Numbered from the stretch's first letter, positions 47,461 to 57,336 are shown. The stretch is 64,000 nt of DNA from an uncultured Bdellovibrionales bacterium (GCA_964436855.1 CAYTED010000004.1:3627-67626), one strand, 5' to 3'. Translations and numbers: made by a program. Notes: generated from the letters alone by a model not told the origin.

Positions 47461-48306
47461 CTATCTCCTTTCACACGTTTGTTTGCGACACACATACGCA
47501 ATGTCTCCCAAAAGATCCGTCCGAAAAATACTCGCTCCGATTTTTTGCAAACGATCAAGCGTTTCCGACGTCGGATGTCCGTACGAATTTTTCCCAACCA
47601 ACACGATCGCTTCTTTCGGTTTCACGGAATTGAGAAAAGATTCGCTGGTCGAATACTTCGATCCGTGGTGCGCGACTTTCAATATATCCGCCTGCGGAAT
47701 CTCCGAAAGAAAATGTTCTTCATTCGGGAGGTCTCCAGTGAACAACACTCGTGTCTCGCCAAAAGAAAAAAGCAAAACAATACTTCCTTCGTTCGAAGCG
47801 TCCTTTCCTGCCGACACGAATTCCGGCGTCGGATGCAAAACATCGAATACTCCTTTCCCATCGGGAAGCGAAATCCGACTTCCGGATCGCAGGGCGTGCC
47901 GATCGACACCCGCCCGTTCAACCGCCGAGAAAAATTCTTTTTCCGTTTCAGTTCCGTCTTCGATCCCGTTTGTCAACACGCTCCTTACCCGATAGAGCCG
48001 GAGAAGTTTTGCAAAACCGCCGATATGATCCCGATCCGAGTGCGTCGCAAGAACCATTTCAATCGTCCGATCCCAAAACGGAAGGTGCCGTCCCAAATGC
48101 GAGAGGAGCCGATCGGGGTCCGCGCCGCTATCAATCAGCAACTCCGTCAAACCGGACCGAACGAGTATCGCATCTCCCTCGCCGATATCAAGAAAAATCA
48201 CTTCCACGGCATCGTCGCGATACGAGACAACAAGAAACACGCCGAGCATTACCGCGAAGGAAAACAGAAATAAAACGATGAAAAAAAGAATTTTGGTTCG
48301 CATCAT
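47461..48306 (-). CDS. Membrane-anchored MBL-fold nuclease, equivalent to the ComEC C-terminal domain, encoded as a separate gene
   Basis: N-terminal TM. ATHSDRDHIGG (HxHxDH) and VAHHGS motifs. Start overlaps the upstream stop by ATGA. Confidence 0.75.
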   Translation of the reverse strand: MMRTKILFFIVLFLFSFAVMLGVFLVVSYRDDAVEVIFLDIGEGDAILVRSGLTELLIDSGADPDRLLSHLGRHLPFWDRTIEMVLATHSDRDHIGGFAKLLRLYRVRSVLTNGIEDGTETEKEFFSAVERAGVDRHALRSGSRISLPDGKGVFDVLHPTPEFVSAGKDASNEGSIVLLFSFGETRVLFTGDLPNEEHFLSEIPQADILKVAHHGSKYSTSESFLNSVKPKEAIVLVGKNSYGHPTSETLDRLQKIGASIFRTDLLGDIAYVCRKQTCERR

Positions 48307-49784
48307 ACCGATTCATCATATCGCCTTCGTCGCAACAAGGCGAAAAAAACCGCGCAAGCAATCGCGTACCACCCCACAGCAAAGAAGAGGGGTGAAATAT
48401 TGTTGAATGATACCAACGCGAACGAAACATCAGAAAACATTCTCGCCGTTTCGGAAAAGAAAAAAAGAAGAAACGATGCGACCAGTGAAAACGGATCCGA
48501 CGAGAAAGAAAATATCATTCCGACAACACCGGAAAGAAACGAAAAAAGCATAATCGGCGAAACAAGTGGAAGAAGAATGGTGTTCACGGCAATCGACACA
48601 AGCGACACCTGCCCAAAAGAAACAAAAAGCACCGGCACGAGAAGCGCTTCAATCACCAGAGTCACAAATGCCGTCTCGAGAAACAATTTTGGGAGCCATG
48701 ATTTTGGAAACGGGATCCGCGTTTGAATTTCAAGCGAGAGGAGAATCGCCGCCGTCGCGAGAAACGAAAGCTCAAATCCGACATCGTATCGAATAACAAG
48801 CGGATTCATAAAAAGCATTGCCGCCAATGCAAAAAGAAGAAACCGCCACCCAACCCCCGGTCGCCCGATAATCGAACCGATAAAAAACGCGCACCCCATA
48901 ATACCCGCGCGCACCGCGGATGCCGGCGCACCAACCAAAAGCACATAAAGAACAATGCTCGCAATCGCTATCGCGGCGGCGGATCTCCTGTACCACCCGA
49001 GTCCGATTGCAAGCAAAAAGAACGCGCTCCCGACAAGCACGATATTGAATCCCGATACCGCCGTCACATGCGAAAGCCCGACGCGAACAAACACCTGCCG
49101 TTCATCGCTTGGCATAGCGTCATCCGACCCAAGAAGCATCCCCGCGGCAAGCGGCGCGTACTGCGGGACAATCGTCCGGTCAAGCGCTTCGAGAAACCGG
49201 TGTTTCCACCGGAAAAGACCCGTTTGAAACGACTCGCCTGATCGAGAAATCCGATCAAACCGATCAGGCCGACACGTGTACCCGATTCCGCGCGCAAGAA
49301 GTATCATCCGCCAAGGGAGCGTTCTTCCACTCATCTCAATCACTTCTTTCGGTTTTTCAAGAACACACGAAAGAAAAAACGACTCGCCCGGAAGCGCCTC
49401 GAATGTTTTCGGAAGTTCAAGACGGATTTTCTCCTTCGGACACGTGTTTGCGCAGTTATCAAATCGAAATTCCGCCTCCGAAGAGAATCCCTTCTCTTTC
49501 ACATCGCTAATTATTTGTCCGCGCCCGGAGACGGTTTCGGAAAACTCCGGAAGCTCTTCTCCATACGAACGTTTTTGCTCCGCAAACGACACGCCACCCG
49601 CAGCAACAAGAAAAAAAAGTGAAACGAGAACGGCGCCCTTCTCCCGAAAAAAAACGGAAAAGAGAGCGATCCCGAACAAAAGACACGCAAAAAGCATTTC
49701 CGGAAAAAACACCGGAAAAAATATCTCCAATCCGACACCGAACGAAAACCCGAGAAGCAACACCGAAAAAATATCGAATCGCAT
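48303..49784 (-). CDS. comEC: ComEC/Rec2 competence channel protein (DUF4131 plus competence domain, lacking the MBL domain)
   Basis: VGLSHVTAVSGFNIVLVG competence-domain motif. Polytopic membrane protein. Confidence 0.75.
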   Translation of the reverse strand: MRFDIFSVLLLGFSFGVGLEIFFPVFFPEMLFACLLFGIALFSVFFREKGAVLVSLFFLVAAGGVSFAEQKRSYGEELPEFSETVSGRGQIISDVKEKGFSSEAEFRFDNCANTCPKEKIRLELPKTFEALPGESFFLSCVLEKPKEVIEMSGRTLPWRMILLARGIGYTCRPDRFDRISRSGESFQTGLFRWKHRFLEALDRTIVPQYAPLAAGMLLGSDDAMPSDERQVFVRVGLSHVTAVSGFNIVLVGSAFFLLAIGLGWYRRSAAAIAIASIVLYVLLVGAPASAVRAGIMGCAFFIGSIIGRPGVGWRFLLFALAAMLFMNPLVIRYDVGFELSFLATAAILLSLEIQTRIPFPKSWLPKLFLETAFVTLVIEALLVPVLFVSFGQVSLVSIAVNTILLPLVSPIMLFSFLSGVVGMIFSFSSDPFSLVASFLLFFFSETARMFSDVSFALVSFNNISPLFFAVGWYAIACAVFFALLRRRRYDESV

Positions 49785-50726: not shown

Positions 50727-53700
50727 TTACGGAGTTACTTCCTTCCAATTAAAGTCCCGTATCTGGCTTGCCGAGCAGCTTGCATTTACCGAGCTGCCAA
50801 AGAGACCATTGCAGTTCCATACGTAGGTTTGTCCCGATCGGGAGAAGTTTGCAACAGCGCCACCCGAACAGAGATCGGAACTTGAACTTGAAAGCGCCTC
50901 GAAAGAACCTCCGTTTGCTGATCCGCAAGATCCATTTTCAGAGTTGTGCGTGTATTGGGCGGTAACGGTTTCATTCGTATTGATCGTTTGAGTACAGGTG
51001 GTACCCGCCGGACTATCGCAGCCGGCAAAGCTCTGGAAGGTATAGGGGCCACCGGCGGTCGTGGTGATGGTACGTACTTGTCCGGAAGGGATGTTGGATT
51101 CCGAGATGAGGCCTCCTGTTTTTGTGGTGCTCGTCGCATCAATCCAAGAAACGGTTGCAGCGACACTCGGACAATTAAGGCAGCTTGTCTGTCCGGTAAG
51201 AGTGTATTTGTTCTGGATGGCAGAACAGGCATTCGGGAGAGTGCTTATCCCTCCTCCTGAACCTGAACAGCCCCAGGTAAAGCCAGTACTGGTTCCAGTG
51301 AGAATGCCTCCGGTGAGGGTTCCTGTAGCACAAAGTCCGGGAGAAGAAGGTGAGAGCGTATCAAGGGAAAGCCCGTTCGCAGAACCGCAACTCCCATTTA
51401 TAACGGGAGCGATTACCGCTTGAGCGGTGGACCATGTGGAGAATCCCCCCTTACTGTCTTCAGTGCGAACACGGAAGGTGTAAGTATTAGCTGTAGACCA
51501 GAGATAGGGTGGATTACTCAAAGTCTGACCAGTGCCGGATGCGACGTATCCCGGGCTGGGAGCATAGTAGTCGACAATCGTGTCATTGTTCCAGTCAATG
51601 GCGTAGCGAATTGAGTCATTGTCTGGGTCAGTTCCTTGAAAGGTAAAGGGGTAGCTTGTATTGGTGTTGCCACTGAAGGGTTGCGGGGTGATGGTGGGAG
51701 GGGCGGGATTGTTGTTGGTGGAGATGGCGGTCAAGTTGAAGGTGATGGTTTGGGGCGGAATAATAATTGGATCATGATCCGGCCTATCCCATCCCCATGG
51801 GTAGCTTAATCTCGTATCTAAAGAATAGAAGTAGGGGTTATCCCCCAACCAGCAGTCATCTGCATACAAACACCCGTCATTTATATTATTTCCGGCACTA
51901 TCAAACCAATACCCATATCCCATATTTTGAGAACGAGCATAATAAGTACCAAGAAACCTGTTAAAATAGTATAGCCAAAACTTCGCTCGAGTTTGAGGAA
52001 ATTGAACTGAAACAGATATAATGCCAGGTCCGGTTACGGTACAATTGGCTCCCATACAAGCAACGGGTCCGGTAAAATTGAGTTGTGGAGTAGGTGGATG
52101 AACAGAAAAATAATACCAACCAAAATGAGAATCGTCTCTTGGTGGAGCATCTGCATTTTGAGTCCAGTATCCACAGGGAGTATCCCACCCGGATCCGGTA
52201 ATCCACCACTGAATATCACAATTTTGAAGGCCTTTTGGAATAACAGAAAATGTACTACCGACCGGAATGCTATCACCATCATTCAAAAGGGCCGCACCCT
52301 GTTGAATGGATGCGCCGTACAAAACCGAAGCCTGCCCATTCTCGTATGTCGGATCAATGCTTCCCTGCCTTGGAAATCCCAATGGTAGCGATGTCCACGT
52401 CACACTCTTCGCCTCCACTCCTTTCCCCAGAAGTAATCCCGATGAAAGCACGAGAAGGAAAAGCGTCATTTTCATTCCGGTGTTCATCGGAGTCGTCGGT
52501 CCGTTTCCATCCTGATTCTTGTGGTGTCTCCAGATGAGGAAAAGAATTCCTCCGATCGAGAGAAGAGCGATCAGTCCAGAGAATATGGTTTTGTTGTTTG
52601 ATGCTTTGCTCATTGTTCCCTTTCCGTCGTTTTGCGCCCCGGGACACATCTTCGGATCAATATCCTTGCAACGATAGGTTTGGGTGACGGTATCCACCAC
52701 TTTCCCATTGTTCTTGAGGAGAGTGGTCAAATTCACATTGCCGGTTGTTTTCGTCGGAGTGAAAGACTGTTTCACACCCATCATCGCACCAGTAATGGCC
52801 CCTTCGTAGGTATAGGTGTGGATCGTTTCTCCGGTATCGGCATCGGTGAGAGAAAGGGTGATTTCGTTCCCGTCGATCTTCGGGAGATTGGTGCTGTGCA
52901 CACAGGAGAAGAGAGCGTTTTCTTTTCCTTTCTCAATTGGGAAGCTTGTGATGCTTGGGAAGTTCAGGCGCATCTCGGGAATACCCTCTCGAACAAAGCG
53001 AATATTGAGTATCGATGAGGCATCCTGATCCTTTGCTTCAACAAGAAGATAAGAGACCGAACCCTTTGCTTGGGTAGTGGTGTAGGAGAGAGACTTTGTT
53101 TCTTTTCCTTTGAGCGTGACGAGCTCGGTTTTTTGATCAAGTTTGTTGTCTTGACGAAGTCCGTCCCAATTAAAGAGGGTCCAGATGAGTGCGATTGTTT
53201 TTGGTTCACTCGAAGGGTTTATGAGGGTTACTTCTGTCGTCACGGGTTCATCCTTCGTAAAGTGTGGTGGGAATGCGGAAAAGTGGTAGTCTTTCTTGTT
53301 GAGAGTGACGGTGTGTTTGTTGAAGGTTACTTGGTTTTGATTCGATGAAGTAACCTTGAAGCCTGCTTTGTTTCCCGTCACATCATCGGTGAAGGTAAGC
53401 CCCAGGAGATTAAAGCGGTCATTCGTAACAAAGAAGAAATCCGCCTCGTAATCGCCGCCGGAAAGCGTATTGGGAACATCGTAAGAAAACGAGAAATCTT
53501 TCTCGCTTTTTGCGGGGAGAGCGATATCCTTTCCCGCCTCAAAGAAGGCAACCATCGGGTAGCCGTTCTGGTGAATCTTAGAGTCTTCCCCTTCTTTCTT
53601 AAAGATCTTCACATAAACGGAACCGCTGATGATTGGGTAGGGATTGTCATTCTTCAATTTTCCGGTAAAGGTAAGAGGTACGCCAGGAATGGTTTGTGTC

Positions 53701-53978
53701 AACGTTGGCGAGAGATCGACTTGAATGGAACCAAAGTGATAATCATCAAAGCAGTTACTCGTCCCCTCCGGAAGAATGGCTCCTCCGGCGGAAGGTGCGG
53801 GGAGGGCGGTCCGGATCTTCTCTTTTTCTTCGTCGGTAAGAGTGGTTTGGTCTTTTTGCAGGAGAACTCTTACTTCCGGGGAGAGATTCGTGGGTGTTGG
53901 TTTGGAAATCTGCGCAGAGACAGGAAGAGTGAAAACGAAAACACAAAGAAACGCGAATAGAAAAACTTTTTTATTCAT
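50727..53978 (-). CDS. Large secreted/surface protein (about 1080 aa) with signal peptide, an internal hydrophobic hairpin, and repeated Cys-containing C-terminal modules
   Basis: Signal peptide MNKKVFLFAFLCVFVFTLPVSAQI. Mid-protein TM IFSGLIALLSIGGILFLIW followed by a second signal-like segment MKMTLFLLVLSSGLLLGKGVEA. Two approximately 60-aa repeats CGSANG..LC..G...W.C.G......CSA. Confidence 0.6.
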   Translation of the reverse strand: MNKKVFLFAFLCVFVFTLPVSAQISKPTPTNLSPEVRVLLQKDQTTLTDEEKEKIRTALPAPSAGGAILPEGTSNCFDDYHFGSIQVDLSPTLTQTIPGVPLTFTGKLKNDNPYPIISGSVYVKIFKKEGEDSKIHQNGYPMVAFFEAGKDIALPAKSEKDFSFSYDVPNTLSGGDYEADFFFVTNDRFNLLGLTFTDDVTGNKAGFKVTSSNQNQVTFNKHTVTLNKKDYHFSAFPPHFTKDEPVTTEVTLINPSSEPKTIALIWTLFNWDGLRQDNKLDQKTELVTLKGKETKSLSYTTTQAKGSVSYLLVEAKDQDASSILNIRFVREGIPEMRLNFPSITSFPIEKGKENALFSCVHSTNLPKIDGNEITLSLTDADTGETIHTYTYEGAITGAMMGVKQSFTPTKTTGNVNLTTLLKNNGKVVDTVTQTYRCKDIDPKMCPGAQNDGKGTMSKASNNKTIFSGLIALLSIGGILFLIWRHHKNQDGNGPTTPMNTGMKMTLFLLVLSSGLLLGKGVEAKSVTWTSLPLGFPRQGSIDPTYENGQASVLYGASIQQGAALLNDGDSIPVGSTFSVIPKGLQNCDIQWWITGSGWDTPCGYWTQNADAPPRDDSHFGWYYFSVHPPTPQLNFTGPVACMGANCTVTGPGIISVSVQFPQTRAKFWLYYFNRFLGTYYARSQNMGYGYWFDSAGNNINDGCLYADDCWLGDNPYFYSLDTRLSYPWGWDRPDHDPIIIPPQTITFNLTAISTNNNPAPPTITPQPFSGNTNTSYPFTFQGTDPDNDSIRYAIDWNNDTIVDYYAPSPGYVASGTGQTLSNPPYLWSTANTYTFRVRTEDSKGGFSTWSTAQAVIAPVINGSCGSANGLSLDTLSPSSPGLCATGTLTGGILTGTSTGFTWGCSGSGGGISTLPNACSAIQNKYTLTGQTSCLNCPSVAATVSWIDATSTTKTGGLISESNIPSGQVRTITTTAGGPYTFQSFAGCDSPAGTTCTQTINTNETVTAQYTHNSENGSCGSANGGSFEALSSSSSDLCSGGAVANFSRSGQTYVWNCNGLFGSSVNASCSASQIRDFNWKEVTP

Positions 53979-54382
53979 AGTTCTTTTATTATTCTTTTTT
54001 TTACTGTCCATTGACTCCATAATACTCCTCCCTAAGACATTTATGCAAGCCATTTTGGCCCAAATAAAAAACAAAGACGACCTCGCCACTGTTTTTCAAA
54101 CATTTCAGTTCCGCCAAAATCAATCTGTACACAATTCTCCACGACCGCTTATTTTTGCGTACAACGCTCAAGACAACAGTATCAAATCGTGTTCAGCTTC
54201 TATTGGTTCCCGTTACGCCGGAAGTTTTTGTTGATTAGGTTGTATCAATTTGAGACGATCGTTATGTGTTGATATGGTGTTTTTGAAAAAAGATTGAAAA
54301 AGAAGGAAACACAAAAACAGCCCCGGCGGAATGTCGGGACTGTTATTTCATTTCGTCTCACGCCACATTCTTCACCTCTCGT

Positions 54383-55642
54383 TTATTTCTTCATCTTCCG
54401 GCGGATAAAGGCGGGGATTTCAAGATCATCGTCATCCTCCGCGATTTCCTTCACATCATTTCGCGATGTAAACGCGCGCGGCTGAATCTTTTCCTCGATA
54501 ATAAGCGGGGTTGGTTCAATTTTCCGAGTTGGAAACGTTATCCGATCATCAACTTCCGGTTCGGAAAAAACAATCGGAGATTTCATTGTCGCCGCTTCTT
54601 CTTCTCGTTCCATTGCTGTTTTCACGGTAGCAGATGGTGCTTGGGTATTGTTTACCCGGGTCAGCAACCCAGGGGCCTCCTTCACGCGATTCGTATCAAA
54701 ACCGGTCGCGACCACGGTAATTTTAATTTCACCCTTCCGAATTCCCTCATTCACTGCTGTACCGAAAATCACCTTCGCGTTCGGATCGATATTTTCCGTC
54801 ACAAGATTCGCCGCCTCATGCACCTCAAGCATGGTCAAATCAGGACCGGAGATATTCAAGAGTACTCCCTTCGCGCCGTCAATCGAAAGCTCGAGGAGTG
54901 GGCTATTGATCGCCGCTTTGGCCGCCTCACTCGCACGATTGTCACCCGACGCAACACCGATACCCATAAGGGCGCTTCCGCTGTCTTGCATAATGGTTCG
55001 CACATCCGCAAAGTCGACATTCACCTCGCCCGGATTCGTAATAAGATCGGAAATACCCTCAACACCCTGTCGGAGTACATCATCGACAATTCGAAATGCC
55101 GAGACAAGCGTTGTTTTCCGGTCAATAATAGAAAGAAGCCGATCATTCGGAATCGTAATCAACGAATCTACGCGATCTCGCAAATTTTCAAGCGCCTCGT
55201 CGGCAATCGCTCGGCGTTGCGCGCCTTCAAAAGAAAATGGTTTTGTTACCACAGCAACCGTGAGCGCGCCAAGCTCTTTTGCCGTTTCCGCGACAATCGG
55301 GGCCGCACCCGATCCGGTTCCACCGCCAAGACCACACGCGACAAACACCATATCCGCTCCCTTCAATACTTCTTGAATTTCATCGCGATTTTCCTCCGCA
55401 GCTTGACGACCTACCTCCGGATTCATTCCCGCGCCAAGTCCCTTGGTAAGATTTTTTCCGATATGCACTTTTTCATTTGCCTTCGAATGATGAAGCGCCT
55501 GCGCATCAGTATTGATCGCCACAAATTCCACTCCTTTGATTTTCGAATCGATCATTCGTGAAATGGCGTTCCCTCCGGATCCCCCAACTCCCACGACTTT
55601 GATTTTTGCAAATGTTTCTATATCCGGTTTGATTTCTGCCAT
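54383..55642 (-). CDS. ftsZ: Cell division GTPase FtsZ
   Basis: [10 protein letters not shown] tubulin signature. Long C-terminal tail. Confidence 0.95.
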
Positions 55643-55949: not shown

Positions 55950-57212
55950 TCACGGAAGGAATTTATTGAAAAATTGCTTCGCTTTTTTCCCCATTTCAAG
56001 GGCTTTTTCCGGCATCATATTGAGCATCACCGACGACGCGCCTCCTTGCGAAGCATCAAATCGATGTTCGTATGAAGAAAGGAGCGCGCCAACCGCCGCC
56101 GAACAAAGCGGTGTGTCCACCTGATCAAAAAGTCCGCCAAGCGGCTGCGGTCCACCGATATGTACCGGCAACCGAAGAACATCTTTCGCGAGCTCGATCG
56201 TTCCCGGAAGAAGCATCGTCCCGCCAGTGAGGATTGCACCCCCGGGGAGCAATCCTTCTTTCCCCGCTTGTTTCAATTCATCATTCACGAATTGAAAAAT
56301 CTCTTCGAAGCGCGCTTCAATAATTTCCGCGACATGACGACGCGACACCAATCCTTCTTCATTCGAATCAAATGCGGAAAGATCGATCTCTTCCCGACGA
56401 TCCACACTTTCGGGGAGCGCGTGTCCGTACGCAAGTTTAAGCGCCTCGGCAACTTCTATCGACGTACGCAAACCAATCGCGATATCGTTCGTAATATGAC
56501 CGCCCCCAACCGGAAGCGCGGCAATATGAATCAGCTCCCCTTCCTCAAAAATGGCAATGGAGGTTGTCCCACTTCCCGCAAGCACAAGAACCGATCCAAG
56601 CTCCTTTTGTTTCTCGGTAAGTACAGCCTGTGCGGCAGCGAGCGGTGCTGCTACAAGACCAAGTAGATTCACTTTTGCAATCTCAAACATCCGTGTCACA
56701 TTCCGGTATGCGAGACTCCCCATTCCAATCACAAGCGCATCCACTTCAAGTCGAACCCCCTTCATCCCAATCGGACTCTGGAGGTTTTTCTGATCGTCAA
56801 GCCGATAACTCTTCGGAACAACATAGAGAATTTCTTGATTCGGCGTAAGCGATGCCTTGGAATGCGCCTCGCCAAGCGCGCGATTCACATCGTCTTCGGT
56901 TACCTCTCCATCCGCAAGCGATACCGCAACGACTCCCTGCGCCGATTGCGAAAAAATATCCGCTCCAGAAAACGAAGCGATAACATTTTCCACGCGCACT
57001 CCCGACATTTTTTCCGCCCGTTCTACAGCACTTGCAAGTGCCTTTGCCGCCTCATCAGGGTTAATCACCACTCCTCGCCGGATCCCAGATGCAGAACATT
57101 CTCCGATACCAATAATCCGGAGAACCCCCCGATCTTCATTTTCTTCTCCAATAATAACCCGGACAGTGGATGAGCCGATATCAATACCGGTAAAAATATC
57201 TTTTTTCGCCAT
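55950..57212 (-). CDS. ftsA: Cell division protein FtsA
   Basis: Actin-like ATPase with DIGSSTVRVIIGE. Confidence 0.85.
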   Translation of the reverse strand: MAKKDIFTGIDIGSSTVRVIIGEENEDRGVLRIIGIGECSASGIRRGVVINPDEAAKALASAVERAEKMSGVRVENVIASFSGADIFSQSAQGVVAVSLADGEVTEDDVNRALGEAHSKASLTPNQEILYVVPKSYRLDDQKNLQSPIGMKGVRLEVDALVIGMGSLAYRNVTRMFEIAKVNLLGLVAAPLAAAQAVLTEKQKELGSVLVLAGSGTTSIAIFEEGELIHIAALPVGGGHITNDIAIGLRTSIEVAEALKLAYGHALPESVDRREEIDLSAFDSNEEGLVSRRHVAEIIEARFEEIFQFVNDELKQAGKEGLLPGGAILTGGTMLLPGTIELAKDVLRLPVHIGGPQPLGGLFDQVDTPLCSAAVGALLSSYEHRFDASQGGASSVMLNMMPEKALEMGKKAKQFFNKFLP

Positions 57213-57336
57213 AAGAAAAACGGATGTATCGCCATCCAACAATCATTTTGTTTTTGAATCCCCGAAAGAAGGGCGCCAAAATAGCACGCCTCCTTGAAAA
57301 CAGTATACCTGAAAACGGCTTTTTTCAAAATATTCT

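Follow-up and report, generated by a model that had tools for sequence, protein, structure and literature searches.

The cytochrome b-c1 polyprotein FbcH of Bradyrhizobium japonicum has reportedly been shown by experiment to be cut at an internal signal peptide, and bacterial polyproteins resolved by signal peptidase are, to our knowledge, rare. FbcH would be the closest known mechanistic precedent for the gene described here, which lies on the minus strand of a 64,000-nucleotide stretch of DNA (the window; GCA_964436855.1, CAYTED010000004.1:3627-67626, recorded as an uncultured Bdellovibrionales bacterium). With a probability of roughly 0.6, we read this gene as a natural fusion of two functionally linked surface genes specific to Patescibacteria, whose precursor would be polyprotein-like and probably cut at an internal signal peptide. 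Patescibacteria, or the candidate phyla radiation (CPR), live attached to other cells. A survey by Méheust et al. 2019 (PMC6744442) described 106 CPR-enriched protein families, most of them poorly annotated and 76 with a transmembrane (TM) helix, and the family of the window gene is one such unannotated CPR surface family. In the collection of papers that we searched, neither this family nor a bacterial precedent for an internal signal peptide turned up.

The encoded chain runs from a signal peptide through a 440-amino-acid (aa) ectodomain, a TM helix (TM1), a 20-aa basic loop, a second segment resembling a signal peptide (TM2), a beta-sandwich and a PKD domain to a Cys-rich tail with two four-Cys modules (aa positions are counted throughout from the Met at ATG 53978). 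All the features that a sequence-only reading of the window had described, namely the signal peptide, the TM anchor, the second signal-peptide-like segment, the Cys modules and the neighbouring ftsZ/ftsA, are present, the gene being on the minus strand. A search of 5.8 billion proteins yielded 106 homologues with lengths of about 760-1700 aa; every named one belongs to Patescibacteria (Moran-, Yonath-, Kaiser- and Taylorbacteria), and the annotation is 'hypothetical' throughout. Nearly every one of the 106 has two adjacent hydrophobic helices at aa ~430-530 in addition to the N-terminal signal peptide, a two-helix hairpin pattern that is far beyond chance.

The arrangement of the two halves was scanned with an N-domain pattern in one genome per species (GTDB), and ORFs (open reading frames) were labelled by hidden Markov models of the N half and of the C half. 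Out of 112 confirmed loci 80 were kept, nearly all of them labelled Patescibacteria or bearing obviously automatic names, and these contain 82 N-domain genes. The halves are fused in 44 of the 82, whereas 27 have separate adjacent halves, in either gene order: the N gene is directly followed by the C gene in 17 cases, the C gene directly precedes the N gene in nine, and one N gene is flanked on both sides (C-N-C). For the other 11 the layout is undeterminable, on account of contig ends plus one locus, L038, discussed below. Split pairs are separated by -8 to +94 nt, often with overlaps of 4 or 8 nt, the exceptions being three apparent longer overlaps, which depend on the choice of start, and one gap of 2.1 kb; this tight packing is consistent with co-expression. 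Split N proteins stop just past TM1 with a short basic tail, TM1 being their C-terminal membrane anchor, and when the N domain alone was used in a profile search the 120 best hits were without exception N-only proteins, 426-533 aa long. Fused, N-then-C and C-then-N layouts are interleaved in a neighbour-joining tree built on the N domain, and therefore fusion and fission have recurred many times. Such repeated joining and parting of the same two genes argues, as 'Rosetta-stone' evidence, for a joint action of the halves.

A genome has one or two members of the family. Two fused copies stand in a row at L034 (3627-11324), where one N domain is very divergent, and again at L025 (3716-11349), where one copy is apparently frameshifted. 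The C-N-C arrangement is that of L084 (6245-10692).

The TM2 segment of fused proteins shares homology with the signal peptide at the N terminus of the separate C gene in split relatives. The sequence-only reading had offered a fusion of two adjacent secreted-protein genes as one of two options, and this homology, together with the separate adjacent halves in many relatives, bears it out as an account of the gene's evolution. After lining up the fused proteins on the conserved KSVxW, we found Ala at -1 in 85 of 106 and Gly in 7, and Ala or Val at -3 in 71 of 106, the remainder being mostly Thr, Ile, Ser and Gly. Pro occupies -6 in 41% of the 61 sequences that align cleanly, and Gly or Pro falls within -4 to -9 in 95 of 106. 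At the start of the separate C genes lies a regular Sec signal peptide that ends in AxA directly before (E/K)SVxW, with Ala at -1 in 79% and Ala or Val at -3 in 86%. The loop that precedes TM2 in fused proteins has a median length of 8 aa and a median net charge of +4, and its charge is at least +2 in 97 of 106. A signal-peptidase I signature is hence retained after TM2 in proteins in which this segment is internal.

In the window protein, aa 484-523 have the sequence properties of a Sec signal peptide but not its position, the segment lying 500 residues into the ORF and not at the N terminus. The n-region is charged (R484, K487 and K503 plus two His), albeit below the family average; the hydrophobic h-region is short (MTLFLLVLSSGLLLG, 15 aa, where TM1 has ~20 residues); the polar c-region, KGVEA, contains a helix breaker and leads into KSVTW; and the residues at -1 and -3 are small (V-E-A before K). 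An AxA-type signal-peptidase I cut is predicted between VEA and KSV, that is, between nt 52410 and 52409. Basic loops stay cytoplasmic under the positive-inside rule, and because the loops here are basic, the topology of the precursor has the N ectodomain out, the loop in and the C half out. The other option of the sequence-only reading, a cytoplasmic loop between two extracellular halves, describes this precursor correctly.

These elements suggest the following course of events. The first signal peptide would start export of the N ectodomain, TM1 would halt transfer while the basic loop remains in the cytoplasm, and what was once the C gene's signal peptide would re-initiate export, so bringing the C half outside. 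The internal signal peptide would then be cut between A523 and K524, giving a C half that starts with KSVTWTSLPLGFPR. In the N module a signal peptide is followed by a rigid stack of immunoglobulin (Ig)-like beta-sandwiches, by a single TM anchor and by a cytoplasmic tail that is short and basic. The C module has a Sec signal peptide of its own, then a beta-sandwich and a PKD domain, and ends with a tail that varies between lineages (here with the two four-Cys modules) and a conserved C-terminal WxE motif. If cleavage takes place, the products would be an N subunit anchored in the membrane and a C subunit that is released, the same from fused as from split genomes, and the two would form a cell-surface complex with the conserved N part as its base and the variable C-terminal tail as its outward adhesive or scaffold end. 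That cleavage of the internal signal peptide still takes place is our inference from the persistence of the signature across deeply diverged fused lineages and from the ease with which the layout switches. Adhesion or envelope scaffolding would be the likeliest role judging from domain types and folds, which, with the tail modules found in relatives, make up a typical surface and adhesion repertoire.

The same topology, both halves outside and the basic loop inside, would also arise if TM2 were a permanent reverse signal-anchor, the product being then a single polypeptide whose two ectodomains stay joined through TM1, loop and TM2. We regard such an uncleaved hairpin as possible, though doubtful. 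It would make sense of the fusion as a guarantee of 1:1 tethering of the halves; however, Ala at -1, a small residue at -3 and Pro/Gly at -6 are as conserved in fused lineages as in the signal peptides of split genes, and in a protein that is not cleaved no selection for the AxA pattern is obvious. The h-region of TM2 in the window, at ~15 residues against ~20 for TM1, also argues against a permanent anchor, and the frequent switching between fused and split states implies an equivalent product. Several points nevertheless weigh against a cleaved precursor, or against parts of the scheme above. The 20-aa loop of the window protein is longer and less basic than the family norm, and its n-region is weak, with a single Lys (Lys503) beside the h-region; because the loop is long and weakly basic at that place, the hairpin is somewhat more plausible for the window protein, whose own internal signal might be an uncleaved reverse anchor. 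The EA-KSVxW block could be kept for structural reasons instead. The tree of the N domain was made by simple neighbour joining, so that fusions and fissions can be counted from it only approximately. Finally, L038 (3003-4436) holds an N-only gene around which no C gene could be recognised over 2-3 kb in either direction; the nearest relatives of this gene are fused, and its C partner may be located elsewhere or lost. A further alternative is that the locus works as two genes, the C half being translated from an internal start at M498, M502 or M504 and read-through from the N half being incidental. Three Met codons do stand right before the h-region, and the window's MKM has its homologue in MKMKLII, with which the separate C gene at L005 starts. 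Yet no Shine-Dalgarno-like sequence precedes any of the three internal ATGs, while the gene start has a GGAGGAG, which makes internal initiation unlikely; the loops of most fused homologues, moreover, have 2-10 residues and often no suitably placed Met, and ribosomes translating the N half would make the fused chain regardless. We give this alternative very little weight.

A merger of two genes through a sequencing or assembly error that lost a stop codon is more improbable still. The window gene sits in a mostly split clade, and eight N-only clusters of 71-74% identity end in IWKEVRRRKNQ and a stop where the window reads IWRHHKNQ-DGNGPTTPMNTGMKM. The stop codon of these closest relatives corresponds to the window codon for D490 (nt 52509-52511), so that the stop-codon polymorphism which the sequence-only reading proposed to look for at about 52560 does exist. 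It is found likewise at L005 (71% identity), with the stop in frame and a 60-nt spacer before the split C start, and at L006 (67% identity), where the C gene is in a different frame. The same reading would take such a stop, if seen in sister genomes, as the sign of a sequencing error, and here we disagree. The change from TAA or TAG to GAT takes two substitutions, and the next 13 codons stay in frame. P0002, a protein from another run (SRR19053153) and 74% identical, has the same fused layout and an in-frame loop that shares NGNGPTxP; its gene differs from the window gene by 348 synonymous codon differences and therefore represents an independent lineage. The protein of the window is itself on record twice in identical form, in an NCBI contig of 132 kb and in the Logan assembly of SRR12229868, and the fused state is that of the 44 species-level N genes given above and of more than 100 database proteins. 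This effectively refutes the error, and the difference at D490 marks a real evolutionary fusion. Hardly more credible is a role in cell division tied to ftsZ and ftsA by gene order. The order ftsA-ftsZ-X-nrdR-comEC, X being the family member, is indeed shared by the window and a few related Moraniibacteriota (L006, L014, L026, L027 and L079), but tblastn and unbiased ORF clustering over the 82 loci found ftsZ nearby in 6 and ftsA in 5, all close relatives, and the protein is almost wholly extracellular. The location next to ftsZ/ftsA that the sequence-only reading pointed out is thus correct for the window and specific to one lineage; since only ~6 of 82 loci share it, the proximity carries no functional signal, and we rejected the link.

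Features of the gene and of its upstream neighbours, in window coordinates
Feature	Amino acids	Nucleotides	Strand	Basis or remark
Whole gene		50727..54020	-	stop codon 50727-50729; likeliest start ATG 54020
N-terminal Sec signal peptide, MNKKVFLFAFLCVFVFTLPVSA then Q	1-23	53910..53978	-	hydropathy; kept in homologues
N ectodomain	24-460	52599..53909	-	AlphaFold2 model, Foldseek, conservation
TM1, IFSGLIALLSIGGILFLIW, stop-transfer anchor	465-483	52530..52586	-	hydropathy, homologues
Cytoplasmic loop, RHHKNQDGNGPTTPMNTGMK	484-503	52470..52529	-	comparison with split relatives
TM2/internal signal peptide, MTLFLLVLSSGLLLGKGVEA	504-523	52410..52469	-	positional conservation; homology to split-C signal peptides
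Beta-sandwich, first C-half domain	524-683 (160 aa)	51930..52409	-	AlphaFold2 pLDDT mostly >90; conservation
Variable W/Y/G-rich insertion (8% W, 12% Y)	684-733 (50 aa)	51780..51929	-	AlphaFold2, low confidence
PKD-like domain and linker	734-863	51390..51779	-	profile against PDB, Foldseek
Cys module 1, four Cys	864-918	51225..51389	-	AlphaFold2 pLDDT ~76-82
Cys module 2, four Cys	1018-1068	50775..50927	-	module profile
Extreme C-terminal motif, RDFNWKEVTP		50730..50759	-	C-termini of homologues
ftsZ		54383-55642		directly upstream of the gene
ftsA		55950-57242		upstream, beyond ftsZ

The minus-strand ORF that carries the gene extends over 50727..54089 and offers three candidate ATG starts. 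A GGAGGAG Shine-Dalgarno sequence lies a few bases upstream of the ATG at 54020 (window 54006-54020), from which the product would have 1097 aa. The ATG at 53978 (MNKKVF...), 14 codons 3' of it, is the start used in the sequence-only reading and in the public record P0001 (1083 aa, 100% identical). We favour the ATG at 54020 because of the strong GGAGGAG that precedes it, and the protein would thus probably begin MESMDSKKKNNKRTMNKK, with a longer basic n-region. Scans of the whole protein, of its halves and of its tail against Pfam and NCBIfam gave no significant match. Membership of the LPXTG sortase-anchored adhesins, of thioester proteins and of transglutaminases was rejected on motifs; for the first of these, the C-terminus reads ...RDFNWKEVTP and no hydrophobic segment lies beyond aa 523.

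The N ectodomain is the best-conserved stretch of the family, with 35-55% identity across classes and the motifs CFDYYxFGSVQVD, NLLGLSFTDDVTGN, FSCxH, MMGVK and YxCxxIDPxxC; in the window the contexts of its Cys residues are NCFDD, FSCVH and YRCKDIDPKMC. Its AlphaFold2 model, built on an alignment of 93 sequences, is all-beta, with a predicted local distance difference test score (pLDDT) of 95 and a predicted template-modelling score (pTM) of 0.88, and consists of a short helical linker followed by about three Ig-like beta-sandwiches packed in a compact stack. Comparison of this model with the PDB by Foldseek returned only generic tandem sandwiches (TM-score 0.2-0.3, identity 8-13%, best E ~1e-9), the best structural matches being the C-terminal barrels of transglutaminases, the MG domains of alpha-2-macroglobulin and complement, and the fibronectin type III (FnIII) pair of Vibrio RbmA. 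The Pfam hints to Transglut_C and MG4 in the window protein are weak and below threshold. Unlike the alpha-2-macroglobulin and transglutaminase families, the N half has neither the CxEQ thioester motif nor a transglutaminase core, and its resemblance to them is one of generic fold, not of family membership.

Conservation along the chain is highest in the N ectodomain, moderate in the first C-half domain and the PKD-like domain, and low in the hairpin and the C-terminal tail. What the sequence-only reading had called a Trp/Tyr/Gly-rich region of ~550 aa exists as a region, only it resolves into a 160-aa beta-sandwich, a W/Y/G-rich insertion of 50 aa and the PKD domain. The beta-sandwich carries the conserved motifs KSVxW, TDISWxGTG and DSPYGxW, and the insertion is poorly occupied in the family alignment and modelled as disordered. 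The PKD stretch has the motif TDPDxDxxRYxxDW (in its family form TDPDGDxxRYxxDW). In a search of the PDB with the family profile it matches 4xed (E=8.6e-20) and the PKD domains of ColH (3e-3), and the model of the C half, with pLDDT >95 across this stretch, superposes on 4xed with a target TM-score of 0.84 and a root-mean-square deviation of 2.5 A over 103 columns at 31% identity (Foldseek). PF00801 is precomputed for five homologues, the window sequence alone remaining below the Pfam PKD threshold. By sequence profile and by fold this is an ordinary PKD domain. The PKD domain in 4xed comes from an archaeal M14 peptidase and those of ColH from a collagenase, and the window protein has the PKD fold and motif at aa ~750-860; unlike in such PKD-bearing secreted enzymes and surface proteins, however, PKD makes up only ~10% of the window protein and the rest falls in no curated family.

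In relatives the tail bears CARDB, dockerin, Calx-beta, Flg_new or additional PKD modules. Despite this variability the last residues are conserved: among the homologues P0001-P0106 and the loci L005-L084, a strict [WFYLVH]xE followed by 1-3 residues closes 104 of 175 C-termini (for example NWKEVTP, NWKEVAP, NVKEVAP, LPNWQEQ, LPSWREQ and NPDFREL). To judge by its sequence, this motif looks like a docking or sorting signal that has no hydrophobic anchor.

The two Cys modules of the window tail (CGSANG...LC...W.C...C) each have four Cys and an invariant Trp; they span ~50-55 aa, slightly less than the ~60 aa first put forward. In the AlphaFold2 model of the C half, module 1 is of moderate and the remaining tail of low confidence. 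The modules are accessory to the family, occurring in only 16 of its 106 members. Neither scans of Pfam and NCBIfam nor a search of the PDB with the module profile gave a match, and no Pfam family covers the module in ten module-rich proteins. The earlier statement that they match no family holds for these libraries, although the module is a very common repeat: a profile built from 15 modules, searched against 1.84 billion proteins, retrieved 4,069 representative proteins with E<=1e-3, 372 of which reach E<=1e-30. There are up to 45 matched stretches per protein, and carriers reach 3,486 aa; those with a name are hypothetical proteins of Paceibacterota and of other metagenome-assembled genomes. 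One carrier, P0244 (437 aa), combines a prepilin N-terminal methylation motif (PF07963) with five four-Cys modules. The Cys module is therefore a widespread, uncurated extracellular four-Cys repeat absent from curated libraries. Compared with the giant metagenomic, largely Paceibacterota, surface proteins built of this repeat, the two C-terminal modules of the window belong to the same repeat, but there are only two copies, with a Cys-containing spacer of ~100 aa between them, and a conserved two-part core precedes them. The enrichment of CPR genomes in MdbA-like disulfide oxidoreductases (PMC6744442) fits with disulfide-stabilised surface modules.

The window as a whole is a CPR housekeeping stretch, with ribosomal protein operons, EF-Tu/EF-G, ndk, comEC, nrdR, the gene described here, ftsZ and ftsA; nrdR and comEC lie downstream of the gene. 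Unbiased clustering of ORFs from the 82 loci revealed no family-wide neighbour besides the N/C pair itself. The commonest neighbours, each at seven loci, encode a PilB-like ATPase or a translation factor, and seven of 82 is too few for a linkage to the ATPase. L001 and L003 have unrelated neighbourhoods; at L001 (2598-11351, on a 1.3-Mb Moraniibacteriota contig) the family member is just downstream of type IV pilus genes (for a PilB-like T2SSE and a PilC-like T2SSF) and of the genes for two small, uncharacterised secreted proteins. In the window, comEC consists of two minus-strand ORFs (47461-49784) that overlap by 4 nt (ATGA), the channel part (DUF4131/Competence) at 48303-49784 (-) and a separate ORF with the metallo-beta-lactamase domain at 47461-48306 (-); it may be another case of fusion or fission in the same window.

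Taken together, these elements allow a tentative picture that goes further than the natural fusion itself and is correspondingly less certain. The family might form a conserved two-subunit surface apparatus, not described before, of the Parcubacteria/Paceibacteria-Moranbacteria radiation, in which the membrane-anchored N base would hold the secreted, PKD-bearing C subunit, the WxE motif would dock on the base and the hypervariable C tail would contact the host or a substrate. About half of the lineages would make it as a polyprotein cut by signal peptidase I at an internal signal peptide, a processing route rare among bacteria that would have evolved and reverted many times. The family provides a handle on an unknown CPR surface system, and a natural experiment in membrane topogenesis, since the same signal peptide works at the N terminus in certain species whereas in others it lies 500 residues along the chain. 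With dozens of independent examples in one clade, the mechanism of the polyprotein resolved by signal peptidase would become testable. For annotation, neither the fused nor the split form should be 'corrected' by gene callers or annotators, and the four-Cys module points to a gap in curated libraries.

The comparison with FbcH holds in two respects: in each case one ORF serves for two proteins that are encoded separately in other bacteria, and the signal peptide of the downstream protein is internal, placed after a membrane-embedded upstream part and followed by a signal-peptidase-type site. The proteins are unrelated, belonging to the respiratory chain in FbcH and consisting of Ig-like and PKD surface modules here, and the cleavage that is said to have been demonstrated for FbcH is in our case suggested by the retained AxA signature. 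Unlike FbcH, moreover, the fused and split states of the present family alternate many times within one phylum, with the split genes in both orders.

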